Part shown: in pieces, positions 11,295 through 22,964 of the stretch
How positions within the stretch are numbered: position 1 is the first letter of the stretch
Layout: each line of letters begins with the position of its first letter
Notes under the pieces: model-generated
What the model was told of the DNA's origin: nothing
The model's database searches: none
What the model saw: the letters and a program-made list of their open reading frames with translations, nothing else
Position numbers and translations under genes: made by a program
Virus record (IMG/VR): IMGVR_UViG_2562617057_000011
Coordinates: 1 to 46,003 of that record
Source of the DNA: a virus
Lineage: Duplodnaviria; Heunggongvirae; Uroviricota; Caudoviricetes
Length of the DNA stretch: 46,003 nt
Direction: 5' to 3' (one strand)

Positions 11295-11375
11295 TTAAAG
11301 CTTCCTCTGGTTCTTGTTGTAAACAATAACAACAAGGCTTCGCGTTGTCCACAGCTACAACATTTTGATATTGAT

Positions 11376-11648
11376 TCTGCAAGTCCGGGACGTTACACTG
11401 TTCCGGCACCTTATAAAACGGGTGCCGGGATTTGCACCCCGGAATTGATCAAGGCGATATATGACGCGCCAGCGTCTTTTTTATCGTCCACGCTCACGCA
11501 CGCCAGAATTATGGTGGGCTGGGCAGGGGAGCCGAAAGGCTCGCCGGTTTCCTTGATCGCCGGTAGTGCAAACCCTGTTCAGTCCGCCACCAGCGAGATT
11601 TGCACCTCCGGTGGTGGAAGTATTTCACCGATCAAGGAGGCTGCCATT
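11376..11648 (+). repeat. structured RNA leader, unit 1 of 3
   Basis: Hairpin 11403-11428, terminator 11463-11482, GAAA-tetraloop hairpin 11529-11542, helix GTGCAAA 11567-11573 with TTTGCAC 11599-11605, second helix CCACCA 11587-11592 with TGGTGG 11610-11615, SD AAGGAGG 11634-11640. Confidence 0.7.
11463..11482 (+). terminator. intrinsic terminator inside leader unit 1
   Basis: GACGC-GCCA-GCGTC hairpin followed by TTTTTT. Confidence 0.55.
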
Positions 11649-11720
11649 ATGGCTACGATCCCAGTTTCCCCATTCCTCAAAATCGAAGTCGTCAACGGTA
11701 AGGCCGTTACTACATCTCTT
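11649..11720 (+). pseudogene. Rha-family gene remnant (first ~24 codons only)
   Basis: ATG at 11649 with MATIP..KIEVVNGKAVTTSL start matching the Rha copies at 12015 and 12671, then diverges; the frame stays open only by running into the next unit. Confidence 0.4.
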
Positions 11721-11829
11721 TTCGGATATCTCAAACTGTTGCGCCTTGCTGGTGTTCCGGGTTATATTTCTCGCGTTGCTGTAAATCCAGCAACCGGGCT
11801 TCGCATCCCGAAACATCACACAGGGCTGA

Positions 11830-11852
11830 CACGCCATAAGCGTGTTTTTTTG
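11830..11852 (+). terminator. intrinsic terminator inside leader unit 2
   Basis: ACACGC-CATAA-GCGTGT hairpin followed by TTTTTT. Confidence 0.55.
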
Positions 11853-12014
11853 TCTACGCACGTCTATTCAATGGCGGCTCAGATGGGAGCTTCTTCGGAA
11901 GCGCCGGTTTTCCCTTGTGTGTCCGGTAATGCGAATCCTGTCTGGGCTGCCACCAATCATGGTTTCGCATCCGTGGGTGGTAGCTGTAAAGCACACACAC
12001 AAGGGGCTGTCACC
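11853..12014 (+). promoter_or_regulatory. structured RNA leader, unit 2 of 3
   Basis: UUCG-tetraloop hairpin 11890-11903, helix ATGCGAA 11930-11936 with TTCGCAT 11965-11971, second helix GCTGCCACC 11947-11955 with GGTGGTAGC 11977-11985. Confidence 0.65.
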
Positions 12015-12377
12015 ATGACTACCACCACTACTCACCCATTCCTCAAAATCGAAGTCGTCAACGGCAAGGCCGTTATTTTCTCTTTGCATGTGGCCTGCCA
12101 CTTTAAGCGCATGCACCAGAACATCGTCGACAAAATCGAGTATCTGAACTGCTCGCGCGAATTTTTTACCCGCAATTTCATACCGGGTACTTACCACATC
12201 TATGACGACTCTCTGCGTGGTTATTACATCACCCTTGATGGTCTGATGCTGCTTCAGCTTGGGTTAAGTCTGCGCACAATGCGGTACTACGAGAGTTGCA
12301 TTGAAGCGTTCCATGAGGCTGAAACCGTCCAGGTGCATTCCGCTTTCCGTCGTCATCAACGGGAGGTGCACCTATGA
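12015..12377 (+). CDS. Rha-family regulatory protein, short form, 120 aa
   Basis: ATG at 12015 after leader unit 2; N-terminal FLKIEVVNGKAV motif shared with the other copies; Rha-like central segment. Confidence 0.6.
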   Translation: MTTTTTHPFLKIEVVNGKAVIFSLHVACHFKRMHQNIVDKIEYLNCSREFFTRNFIPGTYHIYDDSLRGYYITLDGLMLLQLGLSLRTMRYYESCIEAFHEAETVQVHSAFRRHQREVHL

Positions 12378-12384
12378 TCCGCTA

Positions 12385-12670
12385 CCTGAATATTGATTCT
12401 GCAATTCCGGGACGTTACACTGTCTCTGCACCTTATAAAGCGGGTGTCGGGCGTGAGAACCCGGAATTCACCAAAGCGCACAACCGCGCTCTTGCGGTTT
12501 TTTTGTGTCATGAGCAGCATTACGCCCAAATTATGGTGGGGCGTGCAGGGCCAACTTCGGTTGGGCCGGGTTCTTTGGTGACCGGTTTCTCACCCCTGTA
12601 CGTCTCACCACCTATTGCCGTGAGAAGCTTTGGTGGTGAGTTATTAAAAATCACCAAAGAGGCTGCCATC
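12385..12670 (+). repeat. structured RNA leader, unit 3 of 3
   Basis: Terminator 12483-12505, UUCG hairpin 12551-12564, helix TTCTCAC 12587-12593 with GTGAGAA 12620-12626, second helix CTCACCACC 12604-12612 with GGTGGTGAG 12632-12640, SD 12656-12662. Confidence 0.7.
12483..12505 (+). terminator. intrinsic terminator inside leader unit 3
   Basis: ACCGC-GCTCTT-GCGGT hairpin followed by a T7 run; stem differs from unit 1 by compensatory changes. Confidence 0.55.
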
Positions 12671-13234
12671 ATGGCTACGATCCCAACCCTCACTCAACCT
12701 GAAATTGCCATCGTTGATGGTCAGGCTGTTACTTCATCCCTGGCTGTTGCCAACTTCTTCTCTAAACGTCATGACGATGTTCTGAAAAAGATCCGCATTT
12801 TGGATTGTTCTCCAGAGTTTTGTGCCCGCAATTTTGCGGAGACATCAATTTTGGTACGCCAGCCCAACGGTGGTACTCGCAAACTTCCCTGCTACCAAAT
12901 CACCCGCGACGGCTTCGCCTTCCTTGCTATGGGCTTCACTGGTAAACGTGCCGCCCGGTTCAAAGAGGCATACATCAATGCCTTTAACCAGATGGAGAGG
13001 AGCTTATCAGGAGCTGGTGCGGCTGACATGTCATCTGTCGCACAAAACGCCAGAGGCGTATACCTGCATTTGCGTGAAATCCATCAAATCTGGACAAGCC
13101 AGCTTTACCCAATGCTTAAGGCCGTTGAATCTCCGCTGGCTGGCAAACTGTACGACCGTGTAGGTGATGCTGTTTTTGGCGCTGCACTTGTTGATTCCAG
13201 GCTGAATGGTTCTGACAAGGAGGTTCGCCCATGA
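12671..13234 (+). CDS. Rha-family phage regulatory protein, 187 aa
   Basis: ATG at 12671 with AAAGAGG Shine-Dalgarno; canonical Rha-like segment (ITRDGFAFLAMGFTGKRAARFKEAYINAF). Confidence 0.8.
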   Translation: MATIPTLTQPEIAIVDGQAVTSSLAVANFFSKRHDDVLKKIRILDCSPEFCARNFAETSILVRQPNGGTRKLPCYQITRDGFAFLAMGFTGKRAARFKEAYINAFNQMERSLSGAGAADMSSVAQNARGVYLHLREIHQIWTSQLYPMLKAVESPLAGKLYDRVGDAVFGAALVDSRLNGSDKEVRP

Positions 13235-15459: not shown

Positions 15460-16856
15460 CAAACCCGACAAATCCGGCGTGGCGTAATGATGACCTGGAA
15501 GGTGCAGTGATTGGCGCGTTTTTTCTGCGTGGGGCTGATCCGGAAGTGATGGATATTCTGGCCACGCTTCCGGCGGATGTATTTTTTGTACGCCAGTACC
15601 GGGATATTTACGCAGGGATTTGTAGACAGGCCCGTGTATCCGGTGTGATTGACCCCGTACTGCTGTGCAATGAGATGCCGGAACTAGCCCCGGTGATTAC
15701 CGACACCGGACGTAAAACCTGGGTGAAGTCTTCACTGGAGCACTATGTTGCAGCGTTACGGCGCAATGCTGCATTGCGTGATGCAGAAAAAACACTGAAT
15801 GAGGCGCTGCAGAAATTACGTGATGCGCATACCTGTGAAGCAGCTGAAGATGCCCTGAAGGATGCGCACAATATGATGGCCTCATTGTCGACGGAAAAGG
15901 GCGTCATTCAGCCGGTACATATTGATGATGTGCTTCCGGAAGTGGTTGAGCGTGTTGAATGCCGGAATCAGGGGCTGGAGAAATCCAGGACGTTGATGAC
16001 CGGTATTGATGAACTGGACGCAAAAACAGGCGGTATGGAGCCCGGAGACCTGGTATTCATTGCCGCCCGTCCTTCGATGGGGAAAACCGAACTTGCGCTG
16101 GACATCATCGACAAGGTGACTGAGCAGGGGCATGGTGTGCTTCTGTTCACCATGGAGATGGCGAACATCCAGATTGGTGAACGTATGGTGTCTGCGGCTG
16201 GAGGGATGCCAGTATCACGCCTGAAATCTGTGGCTCACTTTGAAGATGAAGACTGGGCGCGTTTCTCACAAGGGGTGGGGCGGATGACCGGGCGCAATAT
16301 CTGGATGGTGGACCAGGCGAACCTGACCATTGATGAGATATGCGCAACAACGAAACACCATCTGATTAAACATCCGGAAACGGCGCTGGTGGTGGTTGAT
16401 TATCTCGGGCTGATAAAAACCCGAACCACGGGGCGTCATGACCTTGCCGTGGGTGAAATCTCAAAGGGGCTTAAAGGCCTGGCAAAATCCGGTGGTTTTC
16501 CGTTGATTGCGCTGAGCCAGCTCTCCCGCGGTGTGGAGTCCAGACCCAATAAACGTCCCATGAACTCAGACCTGAAAAATTCCGGAGAAATAGAGGCGGA
16601 TGCAGACATCATTCTGATGCTTTACAGGGATGAAGTGTACAACCCGGATACGCAGGCCAGGGGCATCGCAGAAATCAATATCACGAAACAACGTAACGGT
16701 TCTCTGGGAACGATTTACCGGCGTTTTTATAACGGACATTTTCTGCCTGTGGACCAGGAAAGTGCACGGGTGCTTTCCACTCCCATGAAGCCCGGCAATC
16801 CGCGCAGATACAGTAATAAACGAACTGACAGCAGTAAGATGGAGCGTTTCTTTTGA
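15456..16856 (+). CDS. DnaB-family replicative DNA helicase, 466 aa
   Basis: RecA-like helicase core (ARPSMGKTELAL, DYLGLI motifs); ATG at 15456 overlaps the upstream stop; GAGGTG Shine-Dalgarno. Confidence 0.9.
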   Translation: MTNPTNPAWRNDDLEGAVIGAFFLRGADPEVMDILATLPADVFFVRQYRDIYAGICRQARVSGVIDPVLLCNEMPELAPVITDTGRKTWVKSSLEHYVAALRRNAALRDAEKTLNEALQKLRDAHTCEAAEDALKDAHNMMASLSTEKGVIQPVHIDDVLPEVVERVECRNQGLEKSRTLMTGIDELDAKTGGMEPGDLVFIAARPSMGKTELALDIIDKVTEQGHGVLLFTMEMANIQIGERMVSAAGGMPVSRLKSVAHFEDEDWARFSQGVGRMTGRNIWMVDQANLTIDEICATTKHHLIKHPETALVVVDYLGLIKTRTTGRHDLAVGEISKGLKGLAKSGGFPLIALSQLSRGVESRPNKRPMNSDLKNSGEIEADADIILMLYRDEVYNPDTQARGIAEINITKQRNGSLGTIYRRFYNGHFLPVDQESARVLSTPMKPGNPRRYSNKRTDSSKMERFF

Positions 16857-17110
16857 ACAACCAGACAATGACTTTTACCCCTGAACAATTGCGTAAACAC
16901 GCGCAGGAAATGCTGCGTCATGCTGAACAACTCGAAAAAACGGGCATAACAAAAGACGCTATCCGTAAAGATATGGTACCCGCGCTTCGGGAACTGATGC
17001 AGGCGAAGCATCGCGCACAGAAAGCAGTAGATGAGCTGGTGGACTGTGTGGCAGAGCTGGAAACCAGAGTCGGAAAGTTTGAAAAACTGGTGCAGGAGGT
17101 GCTGCGCTGA
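16853..17110 (+). CDS. hypothetical coiled-coil protein, 85 aa (non-ATG start uncertain)
   Basis: ORF between helicase and Q; predicted helical; ORF track start is TTG, next ATG at 16868. Confidence 0.45.
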   Translation: MNNQTMTFTPEQLRKHAQEMLRHAEQLEKTGITKDAIRKDMVPALRELMQAKHRAQKAVDELVDCVAELETRVGKFEKLVQEVLR

Positions 17111-17481
17111 TGCGTGATATTCAAATGGTTCTTGAACGTTGGGGGGCATGGGTGGCAAATAATCACGAGGATGTGGAATGGTCATCTGTTGCTGCAGGTT
17201 TTAAGGGATTAATCCCTTCGAAAGTAAAATCCCGCCCGCAATGTAGCGATGACGATGGCCTGATCATTAGCTCTGCGATGACAGTTCTTAAGAAAAAGGA
17301 ACCGTATCAATACGAATTACTGGAAATGTATTATGTGTATGGGGTTACATTACGGGCGTTGGGGGTAAAACTGGGGATATCACTTAATCAGGTTGTTATC
17401 AGACTGCAGAAAGCTGAAGGGTTTATTGACGGTTGTCTGGCAATGTTGGGGGTATCTTTAGAAATTGATTGTTACATATAG
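17110..17481 (+). CDS. Q: late-gene antitermination protein Q-like, 123 aa
   Basis: Sequence recalled as matching prophage Q-family antiterminators (MRDIQMVLERWGAW...); GGAGGTG Shine-Dalgarno; sits before the late/lysis region. Confidence 0.75.
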   Translation: MRDIQMVLERWGAWVANNHEDVEWSSVAAGFKGLIPSKVKSRPQCSDDDGLIISSAMTVLKKKEPYQYELLEMYYVYGVTLRALGVKLGISLNQVVIRLQKAEGFIDGCLAMLGVSLEIDCYI

Positions 17482-17520
17482 TAATAAATTCAATCAAAGT
17501 AAATAATCATATTTTATTAT

Positions 17521-17553
17521 AACCTCCTGATGATACCTGTTCATCGGGAGGTT
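17521..17553 (+). promoter_or_regulatory. 13-bp-stem hairpin that sequesters the ribosome-binding site of the next gene; possible tR-prime-like element
   Basis: AACCTCCTGATGA-TACCTGT-TCATCGGGAGGTT; the 3' arm contains GGGAGG, 3 nt upstream of ATG 17557; AT-rich promoter-like sequence precedes. Confidence 0.5.
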
Positions 17554-17556
17554 ATT

Positions 17557-17913
17557 ATGGATAAAAATGTAGAGCATGTATTAGTTGATGCAATTGAAAA
17601 TAAGCAATCTTTAACAGTCGTTTACTTGGGAGGGAGCCAGCCCGGAACATTAAGGAATATTTCTCCGATTAGTATAAATGGGGATAAATTGCGGGCAAGA
17701 TGCCATAGTTCTGGAGCAGTAAAGGTTTTCAATCTTGGGAAAATACAGTTACCCAGTGACTCCTGCGCGGTATCTATGCACTATGGAGATTTAGAAGTTA
17801 AAGCTTATGAGACGATGCAGAGCGTAAATGACAACTTTCATGCCCTTTATCCTGAAGGTCGATGGGGTGTTGATTTTAATGAGCATCGCTTTGCTTTATT
17901 TGATTTTTTTTAA
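17557..17913 (+). CDS. hypothetical protein, 118 aa (possible WYL/SH3-like fold, speculative)
   Basis: ATG with GGGAGG Shine-Dalgarno; AT-rich island downstream of Q; no confident family. Confidence 0.5.
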   Translation: MDKNVEHVLVDAIENKQSLTVVYLGGSQPGTLRNISPISINGDKLRARCHSSGAVKVFNLGKIQLPSDSCAVSMHYGDLEVKAYETMQSVNDNFHALYPEGRWGVDFNEHRFALFDFF

Positions 17914-17940
17914 AACGGGAAACGAAAAAAAACGGCATTT

Positions 17941-18174
17941 ATGGCAATTGAGTTCAGGGAAAGAGATGAAGAGAAAATAATAACAGGTGTAACAATTGAT
18001 ATTGGTATATCTGGAACAGTGATTTCTGAGAAGTCCCGAATCCCAAAAAGACGACCATGGGTAGTGGTTGGTCCCGAACACGGAGAATACAGTACTTATT
18101 CAACTTTGGACAAGGCTGCTACAGCGTTTTTTGAGAGGCTTTCGTTGATAGCATCCGGCCTGGAAGATAATTGA
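17941..18174 (+). CDS. hypothetical protein, 77 aa
   Basis: ORF follows the 118-aa gene in the same AT-rich island; weak ribosome-binding site. Confidence 0.35.
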   Translation: MAIEFRERDEEKIITGVTIDIGISGTVISEKSRIPKRRPWVVVGPEHGEYSTYSTLDKAATAFFERLSLIASGLEDN

Positions 18175-18303
18175 TTTTATGTTTGGTATTCAGAGTTCGC
18201 CGTGCTTAAGAAAGTCAAGATTCTAAAAATACTGAATGAGCTACTTGTGTTATAACAAAAATGCTATTAGTGTGTTAAGAGTGGTTACTTCGCCACACAA
18301 CTT

Positions 18304-18329
18304 AAACCCGCCACTGAGCGGGTTTTTTG
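18304..18329 (+). terminator. intrinsic terminator
   Basis: AACCCGC-CACTGA-GCGGGTT hairpin followed by TTTTTT. Confidence 0.65.
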
Positions 18330-18450
18330 TACCTGTAAACCTGGTGCAGTACAGTAAACACGCTGGTGGTCGTGAATACTGACTTTTTATCTTGCTGGCT
18401 TTTTAGACAAGAGTTATTGGTATGTCATGTTAACCAGAAGGGAAAAAGAC

Positions 18451-18654
18451 ATGCTAAAACAGCAAGATATGACAGAAACCGCCGCCGCAGTCCTTCATTT
18501 CTTACCTGCTGACAAGTGGGTAACGCCACGCATGATGACGAGAACTACCGGAGTAAGCGAAGCCCGGTGCCAGTTAATACTGACTCAGTTAGTTCTGGCG
18601 GGTCTGGCGAAGGATAACGGCGGGTACGGGAATAAATTCAGACGCTGCCAGTAA
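18451..18654 (+). CDS. small putative winged-helix DNA-binding protein, 67 aa
   Basis: ORF upstream of the methyltransferase gene; second ATG preferred because of a purine-rich SD-like sequence. Confidence 0.4.
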   Translation: MLKQQDMTETAAAVLHFLPADKWVTPRMMTRTTGVSEARCQLILTQLVLAGLAKDNGGYGNKFRRCQ

Positions 18655-18804
18655 TGGCGGTTTCCTGCTGTGAAAATGGGCGGCTGGTGGGTGTTGGTAG
18701 CACCTGCCAGCCATTCGCTCATGCTTACTGGTCACAAGCGAACCACGGCCCACTGCTTTAGCGCAAAAGCAGAGTGAGCCTACCAGAGTTACGCTTACTG
18801 ATCC

Positions 18805-19863
18805 ATGAAAAATACTGTATAAATAAACAGTATTGATTTAATCAACGCTGATTGCCTGCATTTTATTCAGTCCCTGCCTGATGATTCCATTGACCTGATT
18901 GTTACAGATCCGCCGTACTTCAAGGTGAAACCCAACGACTGGGACAATCAGTGGAAAGAGGACGAAGATTACCTTAAGTGGCTGGACCACTGTCTGGCCC
19001 AGTTCTGGCGGGTGTTGAAACCTTCCGGAAGTCTTTACCTGTTCTGTGGTCATCGCCTGGCATCTGATATCGAAATCATGATGCGTGAACGCTTTAATGT
19101 GCTGAACCACATTATCTGGGCGAAGCCGTCCGGGCGCTGGAACGGGTGCAACAAGGAAAGCCTGCGGGCGTATTTCCCCGCCACAGAGCGCATTCTGTTC
19201 GCGGAACATTATCAGGGGCCGTATCGTCCAAAAGATGATGGCTATGAGGCGAAGGGCAGGGCACTGAAACAGCATGTGATGGCTCCGCTGATTTCTTACT
19301 TTCGTGATGCGCGTGCGGCTCTGGGGATAACGGCAAAACAGATTGCTGATGTCTCAGGAAAGAAAAACATGGTGTCGCACTGGTTCAGTGCCAGCCAGTG
19401 GCAGTTACCGAACGAGGATGATTACAGAAAACTTCAGGTGCTGTTTGCCCGGGTGGCAGAAGAGAAACATCAGCGGGGTGAACTGGAAAAGCCACATCAC
19501 CAACTGGTCAGCACATACAGTGAGCTGAACCGGCAGTATGCCAGCCTGCTGGAAGAGTACAAATCCCTGCGGCGTTATTTTTCCGTATCGGCAGCCGTTC
19601 CTTATACGGATGTCTGGACGCACAAGCCTGTGCAGTATTATCCGGGCAAACATCCCTGTGAAAAACCGGCAGATATGTTGCGGCAAATGATTACCGCCAG
19701 CAGTCGTCCGGGTGACCTGGTTGCAGATTTCTTCATGGGGTCCGGTTCGACAGTCAAAGCAGCGATGGCGCTGGGGCGTCGTGCAATTGGTGTCGAGCTG
19801 GAGGCTGAACGTTTTGAGCAGACCGCAAGAGATGTACAGAATTCAATCAGAAAGAGAGAGTGA
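18805..19863 (+). CDS. beta-class DNA amino-methyltransferase (N6-adenine or N4-cytosine), reading frame interrupted by TAA at codon 6; possibly a pseudogene
   Basis: DPPY motif near the N-terminus and FMGSGST SAM-binding motif near the C-terminus; ATG 18805 then MKNTV, TAA at 18820-18822, frame continues INSIDLINADCL..DPPY; ORF track starts at GTG 18925, after DPPY. Confidence 0.7.
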
Positions 19864-19903
19864 TATTGCTGAATTTATTCTGTAACGTTATCATTATGTT
19901 ATC

Positions 19904-19979
19904 GGCCCTTTAGCTCAGTGGTGAGAGCGAGCGACTCATAATCGCCAGGTCGCTGGTTCAAGTCCAGCAAGGGCCACCA
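19904..19979 (+). tRNA. tRNA with anticodon CAT (Ile2-like, lysidine-type; Met not excluded), CCA encoded
   Basis: 76-nt cloverleaf folded by hand; very similar to E. coli ileX as recalled; anticodon loop CTCATAA. Confidence 0.85.
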
Positions 19980-19980
19980 A

Positions 19981-20054
19981 CCACCACTAGCTCATCCGGA
20001 TAGAGCATCAACCTTCTAAGTTGACGGTGCGAGGTTCGAGTCCTCGGTGGTGGG
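19981..20054 (+). tRNA. tRNA-Arg, anticodon TCT
   Basis: Cloverleaf with acceptor CCACCAC/GTGGTGG, anticodon loop CTTCTAA, T-loop TTCGAGT; no encoded CCA. Confidence 0.8.
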
Positions 20055-20059
20055 CCAGC

Positions 20060-20135
<76 letters not shown>

Positions 20136-20138
20136 TAT

Positions 20139-20213
<75 letters not shown>

Positions 20214-20827
20214 GCGAGATTTGAGACGAAGGTTGTTATTTGCACTGACACAATATTGTGTGGGAATGTCTGACTCCTTACCATCTCCTGTTCTGTGATG
20301 TTGTTTTGTTGCAGTTCCAGTGCTCTTTTTTCAGCACCAGAATGGTGCATTGTCGGTCAGGTTACGTAGTGAACCTCTGGCAGGGGACTGATGATTCATC
20401 ATTCTGGTGTTGTAAATATCTCTTCGGACAACTTACAAAATATTCTAAGCAAACCCCGGGAACACACTCTTAACTGCCTTGGCTGGCGGTTTTTTGTACA
20501 GCGCTCGGTATGTGTGAGCTGGAAATCAGATTTTGCATGGACTGGAATCATGCTGTTATTTAGGGGCGAAGAACTGGCTTTTTCTTCCGCCTTCTCACCA
20601 GTAACGATTAGAAAAATAATGAAATGCCCCCCTCCGGGGAGGAGGACCGTAGAAAAAAGGACCCGCCAGCAAAAACATTGGGGATGAACAGCTTTCGCTA
20701 CTCAGATTGCTGGCGGGTAAAGTTCCTCATGAATTAAGAATGCTACGCGATCTTTTTTAATGGAAATGAAAATTATTGTCAATTAGTCGTGCGTGTTTTT
20801 TCATACAATATTGGTAAAGGTGATTCA

Positions 20828-20860
20828 GGCCATCAGAGTTTTGCTGATGGCCTTTTTTCT
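20828..20860 (+). terminator. intrinsic terminator upstream of the lysis genes (tR-prime-like)
   Basis: GGCCATCAG-AGTTTTG-CTGATGGCC hairpin followed by TTTTTT, about 35 nt before the holin start. Confidence 0.65.
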
Positions 20861-20894
20861 TTCCGATAGCACAGGTCTGTCGGGGGGGCGGGAT

Positions 20895-21110
20895 ATGTAT
20901 CAGATGGAAAAAATATCAACAGGCATTGCCTACGGCACCTCCGCCGGCAGTGCCGGCTACTGGTTTTTGCAGTGGTTGGATCAGGTCAGTCCATCACAGT
21001 GGGCTGCGATTGGTGTGCTGGGAAGTCTGCTTCTGGGGCTTCTGACTTATCTGACGAATCTGTATTTCAAAATAAGAGAAGACAAGCGTAAGGCTGCGCG
21101 GGGAGAGTAA
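20895..21110 (+). CDS. S: class II holin (phage 21 S-type pinholin), 71 aa
   Basis: Sequence matches the recalled phage 21 S protein ([39 protein letters not shown]...); dual-Met start MYQM. Confidence 0.9.
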
Positions 21111-21114
21111 TTCA

Positions 21115-21645
21115 ATGACACAAAACTATGAACTGATTGTGAAAGGGATCCGCAATTTTGAGAATAAAGTTGCGGTAACTTTAGCGTTACGGGACAAAAA
21201 ACGCTTTGACGGTGAAATTTTTGACCTGGACATCTCGCTGGACCGTGTTGAAGGTGCCGCGCTGGAGTTTTATGAGGCAGCGGCCAGAATGAGAATCAGA
21301 CAGGTATTCCTGGATGTTGCTGCCGGGTTATGTGAAGGGGATGAGCAGTCGCCGGAAAAGCGCCCCATAATTTTAGAGGCGCAGAATGTGTGGATAACCT
21401 ACAAAGGAAAGCTACCGGGAAGAATTACTGGTTCTCTGAAGACGCCACCGACGGCATTGCGGTCAGAAAAAGATGATATTGAATCGCCCATTGAAAAACT
21501 GGAGAAAAAATTGTCGGTGCTGATTCCTTCTGAAGATGAAAAAAAACGCCGCGATGAGCAGTTTGCGGCGTTTTACGATTATTGCATTGAAGTTACTCGC
21601 AGGAATTTTGTGAAGATTTTTGAGGAGGGTAAATCTCTTCAGTAA
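21115..21645 (+). CDS. hypothetical protein inserted between holin and endolysin, 176 aa
   Basis: ORF with GGGGAGAG Shine-Dalgarno starting 5 nt after the holin stop; no family recognised. Confidence 0.55.
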   Translation: MTQNYELIVKGIRNFENKVAVTLALRDKKRFDGEIFDLDISLDRVEGAALEFYEAAARMRIRQVFLDVAAGLCEGDEQSPEKRPIILEAQNVWITYKGKLPGRITGSLKTPPTALRSEKDDIESPIEKLEKKLSVLIPSEDEKKRRDEQFAAFYDYCIEVTRRNFVKIFEEGKSLQ

Positions 21646-21859
21646 GCTTAATGGCGGACGCTGCAATTAATTCAGGAAGGTCCGCAAGGTCATCTGTCAG
21701 TGGATATGATGAAAAATCGGCGGCAGTTCTGTTAAGAAGCGCTTTAACTAATTCCTTTTCCTTCTCCGGCAACAAGTTGATTAGAGCTACGACTGCTTGC
21801 CTGAGTGCGATTAAATCAGCAAAAGTTTGTTTTGGTAGATTTGTGTAATCCGTAGTCAC
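21593..21859 (-). CDS. possible acidic small protein, 88 aa, GTG start, convergent with the 176-aa gene
   Basis: Protein-like acidic helical sequence, but GTG start and a 53-bp 3' overlap with the convergent gene. Confidence 0.3.
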   Translation of the reverse strand: MTTDYTNLPKQTFADLIALRQAVVALINLLPEKEKELVKALLNRTAADFSSYPLTDDLADLPELIAASAIKLTEEIYPPQKSSQNSCE

Positions 21860-21966
21860 CTCTGTGTTTATCAGATTGACATCCTCCTCCCGCCAGTGCC
21901 CATCACTGGCGAGGTAAGATTTAACATATCCGGGGATTTGAAGCCGATAAATCCTGATAAATATCC

Positions 21967-22500
21967 ATGAACGTAAAAATCAGATATGGCCTGTCGGCTG
22001 CCGTTCTGGCACTGATTGCTATCGGTGCGCCTGCGCCTGATATTCTCGACCAGTTTCTGGATGAAAAAGAAGGTAACCACACTACGGCATACCGCGATGG
22101 TTCCGGCATCTGGACCATCTGTCGGGGTGCCACGATGGTGGATGGTAAACCCGTTTTTCCCGGTATGAAACTGTCGAAGGAAAAATGCGACCAGGTTAAC
22201 GCCATTGAACGTGATAAGGCGCTGGCATGGGTGGAGCGCAATATTAAAGTACCACTGACCGAACCACAAAAAGCGGGTATAGCGTCATTTTGCCCCTATA
22301 ACATTGGCCCCGGTAAGTGTTTCCCGTCGACGTTTTATAAGCGGCTGAATGCCGGTGATCGTAAGGGCGCATGCGAGGCGATTCGCTGGTGGATAAAAGA
22401 TGTTGGGCGCGATTGCCGCATACGTTCAAATAACTGCTATGGACAGGTTATTCGTCGTGACCAGGAAAGCGCATTAGCCTGTTGGGGGATAGATCAATGA
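21967..22500 (+). CDS. R: SAR endolysin (T4-lysozyme-like muramidase with N-terminal signal-anchor-release domain), 177 aa
   Basis: Hydrophobic Gly/Ala-rich N-terminus; catalytic E-D-T arrangement ([20 protein letters not shown]); follows a pinholin. Confidence 0.9.
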
Positions 22501-22964
22501 GCAGAGTCACCGCGATTATCTCCGCTCTGGTTATCTGCATCATCGTCTGCCTGTCATGGGCTGTTAATCATTACCGTGATAACGCCATTACCTACAAAGA
22601 GCAGCGCGACAAAAACGCAAGAGAACTGAAGCTGGCGAACGCAACCATTACTGACATGCAGCAGCGCCAGCGTTCTGTTGATGCACTCGATGCTAAATAC
22701 ACGAAGGAGTTAGCTGATGCGAAAGCTGAAAATGATGCTCTTCGGCGCAAGCTTGATAATGGTGGTCGGGTGCTCGTCAAAGGAAAATGCCCTGTGCCAG
22801 CCTCAGCCAAAACCTCCAGCGCCTCCGGCATGGGCAATGATGCCACCGTCGAACTCTCTTCAGTTGCTGGACGAAACGTTCTCGGTATCCGGGACGGAAT
22901 TATCCGCGACCAAACAGCACTGAGAACGCTTCAGGAATACATCAATACGCAATGCCTGAATTAA
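22497..22964 (+). CDS. Rz: spanin inner-membrane subunit Rz (i-spanin), 155 aa
   Basis: N-terminal transmembrane helix, coiled-coil periplasmic part; ATGA overlap with the endolysin stop. Confidence 0.85.
22717..22923 (+). CDS. Rz1: spanin outer-membrane lipoprotein Rz1 (o-spanin), embedded in Rz in another frame, 68 aa
   Basis: Lipobox VVGC, proline-rich mature part, AAGGAG Shine-Dalgarno; fully nested within Rz. Confidence 0.8.

Follow-up and report, generated by a model that had tools for sequence, protein, structure and literature searches.

In a 46,003-nucleotide (nt) stretch of virus DNA (Caudoviricetes; IMG/VR record IMGVR_UViG_2562617057_000011, positions 1 to 46,003; hereafter, the window), the gene of a DNA methyltransferase (18805-19866, + strand) is interrupted by an in-frame TAA at its sixth codon. 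We conclude that the gene, which codes for an orphan beta-class N6-adenine methyltransferase of the M.EcoGII family and lies among the late genes of a lambdoid prophage, is most likely a loss-of-function allele of recent origin. One A-to-T change turned the Lys6 codon AAA into TAA and left the rest of the open reading frame (ORF) untouched, and the best reading of the resulting null allele is ordinary prophage gene decay. Ribosomes that start at the native ATG, which has no Shine-Dalgarno sequence upstream, would release a pentapeptide, and the full-length enzyme would not be made.

The frame opens as ATG AAA AAT ACT GTA TAA (18805-18822, + strand), which leaves a residual ORF of five codons (MKNTV). 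Its ATG is the native start of the family: the Prokaryotic Genome Annotation Pipeline (PGAP) begins the gene there in relatives, and the N terminus of M.EcoGII reads MLNTVK. The nonsense codon occupies 18820-18822 (+ strand), with T18820 as the rare base. Past the stop, the ORF is otherwise intact (18823-19866, + strand) and stays open in the same frame for 346 codons, up to a terminal stop at 19864-19866. It resumes directly after the MKNTV stop as INSIDLINADCLHFIQSLPDDSIDLIVTDPPYFKV..., and its translation (INSIDLINADCL...TDPPY ...FFMGSGS) retains, in the order motif IV, target recognition domain (TRD), motif I, both the catalytic DPPY (motif IV, residues 35-38; 18907-18918, + strand) and the S-adenosylmethionine-binding FFMGSGS (motif I, FxGxG; residues 309-315; 19729-19749, + strand). 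We consider the frame assignment secure because the residues after the stop match the Pfam family N6_N4_Mtase (PF01555) with E=1.7e-45 and 156 bits (cut-off, 26.7) over profile positions 1-219 of 221. The initial annotation had described MKNTV, the stop at 18820-18822, and a frame running on through DPPY and the cofactor-binding motif, and the sequence is exactly so. It had also placed the first canonical start after the stop at a GTG downstream of DPPY, which we confirmed. This GTG (codon 41; 18925-18927, + strand) sits three codons past DPPY, with no ATG, GTG, or TTG in frame between it and the TAA. As the sole canonical restart, it would yield a 312-amino-acid product without DPPY. The allele combines a disabling AAA-to-TAA change relative to intact orthologs with the absence of any canonical restart that keeps the catalytic motifs, and on these grounds we call it null.

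Its sequence places the gene among the orphan beta-class N6-adenine methyltransferases of the M.EcoGII family. The motif order, IV (DPPY), TRD, and then I (FxGxG), is that of the beta class, and homologs in the PDB align to both ends of the protein. With Lys6 restored, the protein is identical to M.EcoGII at 301 of 349 positions (86%) and colinear with it from residue 1; the M.EcoGII sequence was taken from the supplement of PMC11551740 as optically recognized text with a few errors. Identity is also 86% to the methyltransferase of phage 1720a-02, an enzyme that has been named as very similar to M.EcoGII (PMC5778455). M.EcoGII methylates adenine in any sequence context (PMC5778455; PMC7544214), and the protein of this particular allele would presumably have shared this lack of specificity. 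No endonuclease was found near the gene, and PADLOC returned methyltransferase hits only.

Comparison with relatives identified the ancestral codon. The closest genomes are 99.8% identical over 1251 nt, and CFSAN029787 and RM8352 carry AAA at codon 6 (GTA AAA ATA, versus GTA TAA ATA in the window). In the nearest genomes, PGAP annotates a 352-amino-acid coding sequence that starts at the same ATG. A wider survey, with the methyltransferase protein as query, found 80 species-level loci. Codon 6 is AAA, AAT, or ATT in 46 species-level homologs, and the ORF is undisrupted in 62 of 63 loci outside Xenorhabdus. On this comparison, the TAA is a departure from the relatives of the gene and not a trait of the family. 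A nonsense mutation was one of the options offered by the initial annotation, and it is the one that held: the intact homologs, together with Lys6 of the experimentally characterized M.EcoGII, which starts at the same ATG, give AAA (Lys) as the ancestral codon and an A-to-T change as the lesion. The possibility that homologs naturally start downstream had been raised as well. This is false for more than 1,000 close Escherichia coli alleles and for M.EcoGII, and it is true only in distant lineages.

The lesion appears to be young. Across 6.8 kb (16068-22901), the window and CFSAN029787 differ at just four places: 16827, 18820 (T versus A), 18832 (A versus G), and 20882, where the window has an extra G. 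We take the lesion to be recent given so few differences and the lack of further damage to the ORF. The difference at 18832 (+ strand), which the initial annotation had passed over, changes GTT (Val10) of the closest relatives to ATT (Ile10) and so creates a near-cognate start. This G-to-A change is a standing polymorphism, found in GB089 and at 16 of the 46 species-level loci.

The TAA allele is also rare. An 81-mer from the window had no exact match among 1,058 matching E. coli records; three records were one base off, and the one that we inspected (GB089) combined AAA at codon 6 with ATT at codon 10. An exact 28-mer was absent from a set of 185,579 species represented by a single genome each, from metagenome contigs, and from IMG/VR. 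Outside the window, the allele was found only in a Logan contig of run SRR9425317, whose 1556 nt are 100% identical to 18398-19953 of the window, both changes included; our literature search returned no paper mentioning this run. An allele that is essentially unique invites the suspicion that the stop is a sequencing or assembly artefact and that the true codon is AAA. We think this very unlikely. The contig with the same two changes comes from a separate assembly, which speaks against an artefact of assembly, and the substitution lies outside any long homopolymer of the kind prone to error, with a second substitution 12 nt away.

Some enzyme could in principle be made from downstream of the stop. 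Three near-cognate codons follow in frame, ATA at 18823 (codon 7), ATT at 18832 (codon 10), and ATC at 18841 (codon 13), and initiation or reinitiation at any of them would supply low-level enzyme, so that a toxic protein would be tuned down and not abolished. All three precede the core of the fold, since solved homologs align from about residue 9, and codons of this type (AUA, AUC, and AUU) initiate at 1 to 2% of AUG in reporters (bioRxiv 10.1101/063800). Moreover, the codon-10 ATT itself differs from the closest relatives, and natural members of the family start late. Ten species-level loci from Xenorhabdus (L052, L056-L058, L060, L062, L064, L065, L076, and L077, around position 2001) read ATG GAA TAG CCN GTG. 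The TAG, in frame as the third codon, is conserved, and translation evidently begins at the GTG, the equivalent of codon 5. In Proteus cibi and Proteus hauseri (L085 and L087, also around position 2001), unrelated upstream sequence leads to an ATG start that aligns with codon 10 of the E. coli protein (MQLFNDDAL), which indicates that the first nine residues are dispensable in nature. Yet none of the three near-cognates is preceded by a Shine-Dalgarno-like sequence, and the 1 to 2% figure was obtained with a strong ribosome-binding site. The ATT also occurs in intact alleles such as that of GB089, so it need not be compensatory, and no other genome was found with this layout plus a non-canonical restart. 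We therefore regard a leaky, partially active allele as improbable, and meaningful enzyme expression from the window allele as unlikely.

Of the two low-expression routes proposed in the initial annotation, non-canonical initiation survives as a possible source of traces of enzyme, and readthrough found no support. The idea that regulated readthrough or frameshifting carries ribosomes past the TAA draws on the intact downstream ORF and on nothing else, and that intactness is explained by the recency of the mutation. The stop occurs in no homolog. The +1 and +2 frames close within 1 to 10 codons, so a frameshift could not bypass the TAA, and none of the four tRNAs encoded by the prophage is a suppressor. 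We rejected programmed recoding and give it hardly any credence.

The TAA falls inside a conserved palindrome that resembles an SOS box, a feature absent from the initial annotation. This element, TACTGTATAAATAAACAGTA (CTGT-N8-ACAG; 18813-18832), overlaps codons 3 to 10 and is a putative LexA operator. Of its 20 positions, 18 agree with the gammaproteobacterial LexA consensus TACTG(TA)5CAGTA, and the element is nearly the same as the hokE box, CACTGTATAAATAAACAGCT. No other site in the 46-kb window has three or fewer consensus mismatches, and none of 100 shuffles yielded one. With an approximate position weight matrix (PWM) built from 24 K-12 LexA operators, the window box scored 27.2 bits, compared with 12 to 26 bits for those operators themselves (leave-one-out), 20 to 24 bits for wild-type alleles of the methyltransferase gene, and 13.5 bits for the next-best site in the window. 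We sampled 240 viral and metagenomic hits to a relaxed pattern, ACTGTATAAATANNCAGT; none lay beside a methyltransferase, these being generic SOS boxes, and the exact 20-mer of the window was the commonest variant among them.

The palindrome is a property of the gene family. A 17- to 24-bit site lies exactly 8 nt downstream of the first base of the start codon at 46 of the 80 species-level loci, and no other site of at least 14 bits occurs within -600 to +1300 of these 46. They span Escherichia, Salmonella, Citrobacter, Klebsiella, Enterobacter, Kosakonia, Buttiauxella, Erwinia, Rosenbergiella, Morganella, and Proteus and cover the families Enterobacteriaceae, Erwiniaceae, and Morganellaceae. 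The 46 were chosen by the pattern CTG-N10-CAG and amount to every locus with an aligned N terminus outside Xenorhabdus and Photorhabdus; four further complete loci outside those two genera (L034, L085, L087, and L088) have unrelated N termini. Codon usage within the box is constrained. Codon 8 has C in third position at 46 of 46 loci, while the residue varies among N, S, H, T, and P. Thr4 is ACT at 45 of 45 loci, Lys6 is AAA at 28 of 28, and Ile7 is the rare codon ATA at 33 of 33; Ser9 is AGT at 45 of 46 and never TCN. Synonymous and amino-acid-changing positions alike keep CTG and CAG, and beyond codon 10 the synonymous choices are well mixed. Xenorhabdus and Photorhabdus encode a similar peptide (NIVNLSG) and have lost the motif (-0.2 bits or less). 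These patterns indicate that the palindrome is conserved at the DNA level, independently of coding constraint.

Both changes in the window shift the box toward the consensus. From the wild-type box, TACTGTAAAAATAAACAGTG, agreement rises from 16 to 18 of 20 positions; the change at 18832 brings box position 20 to consensus. The PWM score of the closest wild type is 21.5 bits, that with A at position 20 is 23.4 bits, and that with both changes is 27.2 bits. No natural allele among the 46 species-level loci has T at box position 8, where T before AA makes a stop. Each change also makes the box more self-complementary (pairs 1-20 and 8-13). We considered a single quasi-palindrome template switch as the source of both changes and rejected it on our own reasoning, as they lie on opposite arms and positions 7 and 14 are still mismatched.

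If the palindrome is a LexA operator, it would help to hold a toxic gene silent until the SOS response sets in, a timing that would coincide with prophage induction, and the two changes in the window would lower expression transcriptionally as well as translationally. The M.EcoGII family is not expressed in lysogens and is harmful under constitutive expression (PMC5778455; for M.EcoGII, also PMC7544214). Loss of a gene whose toxic product lysogens do not make should cost the host nothing. It is also conceivable that both changes were fixed because a stronger operator and a dead ORF were favored where a leaky methyltransferase was costly. Two of the four differences from CFSAN029787 in 6.8 kb land in the 20-bp box, both in the direction of the consensus (21.5 to 23.4 to 27.2 bits), and constitutive expression of the enzyme is deleterious (PMC5778455). 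But the case for it is made post hoc. Many species-level alleles have A at position 20, the G-to-A change being a standing polymorphism, and the nonsense codon alone silences the gene, which makes a strengthened operator redundant. Only one lineage was observed, with no parallel occurrences. Selection for silencing is, in our judgment, an unlikely explanation, and ordinary decay is preferred.

Several considerations weigh against the account given here, as regards both the null allele and the operator. The near-cognate codons upstream of the core, taken with the natural late starts, suggest that traces of enzyme are possible. The SRR9425317 contig may share its isolate or its reads with the window, in which case a sequencing or consensus error would be formally possible. 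The bit scores come from an approximate PWM, and LexA binding at the box is a prediction from sequence. A consensus scan and manual inspection of both strands revealed no convincing sigma-70 promoter for the box to occlude. Finally, the AT-rich bias of codons 2 to 7 could partly reflect selection on translation initiation; such selection could account for the preference for AAA, ATA, and TTA but would not account for the invariant C and G of CTGT and CAGT. As a separate matter, we rejected TTACTG-17-TATAAA as a sigma-70 promoter, given that it matches the -35 element at 2 of 6 positions and that transcription would start downstream of the ATG.

Between the upstream small ORF and the methyltransferase lies a conserved non-coding stretch of about 150 nt, most of which forms a structured leader of ~135 nt (18670-18804, + strand) that ends 1 to 2 nt before the ATG and is conserved from Escherichia to Proteus and Morganella. 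Rfam gave no hit to the leader at the gathering score, and in E-value mode only a chance-level match on the opposite strand (E=4.6). The leader folds better than shuffled sequence (z = -2.65). RNAalifold alone recovered part of the structure, and we tested a hand-built model on 49 distinct sequences. The model comprises five helices: P1 (18677-81/18748-52), P2 (18682-93/18701-12), P3 (18714-19/18737-42), P4 (18755-59/18766-70), and P5 (18730-33/18800-03). Overall, 88.5% of positions in the model were paired, and nine pairs had changed on both sides, compared with 3.6 ± 1.2 in shuffles (0 of 500 reached nine) and at most 5 in slid controls. Covariation was confined to P2 and P3. P1, P4, and P5 are invariant, and their pairings are unproven parts of the model. 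The G-U pairs place the RNA on the + strand. We consider the leader a candidate cis-regulatory element.

Two further features adjoin the leader. A GATC (Dam) site lies directly upstream of the ATG (18800-18803), in the 3' strand of P5 in the hand-built model; in the 49 aligned leaders, its ATC is invariant and its G nearly so. On the other side, a hairpin followed by a T run (about 18643-18666, with TTTCCT after the stem) ends the small ORF, whose TAA is in the loop. Between homologs, the two sides of the stem change together (GCTGCC/GGCGG versus GCCTCC/GGAGGC), and the hairpin is a possible terminator that parts the small ORF from the methyltransferase unit.

Taken together, the box and the leader suggest a bolder proposal, which we put forward tentatively and hold to be possible without expecting it to prove correct. 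The M.EcoGII family would be under direct SOS control, through a LexA operator in codons 3 to 10 and the ~135-nt leader. The window allele would then be a double hit, operator-up plus null, recording selection against a leaky toxic enzyme, and the silence of M.EcoGI and M.EcoGII in lysogens would be explained. Our literature search found no report tying LexA to the M.EcoGII gene family. The putative operator and the leader, which was previously undescribed, would be additions to the description of M.EcoGII, and we offer both as regulatory hypotheses.

The host element is a lambdoid prophage. In its late region, Q is followed by the small ORF, the structured leader, the methyltransferase, the tRNAs, and the lysis genes. 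The Q antiterminator is at 17110-17481, followed by a split gene of phrog_8498 (17530-18174). The small conserved ORF (phrog_331; 18427-18654, + strand) always precedes the leader and the methyltransferase. Directly downstream of the methyltransferase are four prophage tRNAs (19904-20213, + strand; anticodons CAT, TCT, TGT, and TCC), and downstream of these are the holin, lysozyme, and Rz genes. This module is shared by Stx2c and Stx2a phages, phiP27, 1720a-02, and mEp460, and relatives of the gene are present in 2,612 of 5,426 complete E. coli genomes.

We made some side observations on the rest of the prophage. The ORFs at 17530-17913 and 17941-18174 match the two halves of phrog_8498 (positions 1-118 and 129-205), with a weak WYL-like hit; the gene is split or disrupted in the window and is split in the closest relative, CFSAN029787, too. 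In the tRNA cluster, the CAT tRNA is called Met by ARAGORN and Ile by PGAP in relatives, and the others are Arg-TCT, Thr-TGT, and Gly-TCC. The extra G at 20882 relative to CFSAN029787 lies about 12 nt before the annotated start of the holin gene. Finally, the region at 11368-12731 contains three tandem modules, each with an isrK-like RNA, a C4 antisense RNA (Rfam, 61 to 84 bits), and a similar ORF start (MATIP...KIEVVNGKAV), and it resembles a triplicated c4-ant immunity/antirepressor region of the P1/P7 type.

Taken alone, the TAA allele amounts to a routine pseudogene in a prophage. Annotations should mark the gene as disrupted and should not take a 312-amino-acid call started at the GTG for a functional enzyme. 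For methylome prediction, this prophage should add no non-specific N6-methyladenine (m6A). M.EcoGII is widely used as a footprinting and m6A-writing tool. A LexA-type operator that appears to be conserved at the DNA level and a covarying leader provide concrete hypotheses for the silence of its family, and they also suggest a tie between the SOS response and phage anti-restriction methylation.

The gene can be set beside several known systems. M.EcoGII and M.EcoGI, from prophages of E. coli O104:H4 C227-11 (PMC5778455), are likewise orphan, prophage-borne enzymes with the beta-class motif order, and the neighborhood of the window gene is that seen in phages 1720a-02 and phiP27. The difference is that M.EcoGII has Lys6 where the window copy has TAA, so that the window copy should give no enzyme. 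The solved beta-class enzymes M.RsrI, M.MboIIA, and CcrM (PDB 1eg2, 1g60, and 6pbd) share homologous regions, motif IV at the N terminus and motif I at the C terminus, but they are sequence-specific and have different central TRDs; the window protein did not reach the NCBIfam equivalog cut-offs for these enzymes. The Xenorhabdus homologs resemble the window allele in having an in-frame stop a few codons past the ancestral ATG with the frame continuing beyond it. There, however, a canonical GTG follows 3 nt after the stop and is common to all 10 loci, whereas the window allele has no such canonical start and, outside the window, is known from one contig. Lastly, canonical E. coli LexA operators such as those of umuDC and hokE are 20-bp palindromes of the same TACTG(TA)5CAGTA type, from which the window box departs by two mismatches; unlike canonical operators, the window box lies within the first ten codons of a gene, with no identified -35 or -10 element beneath it.

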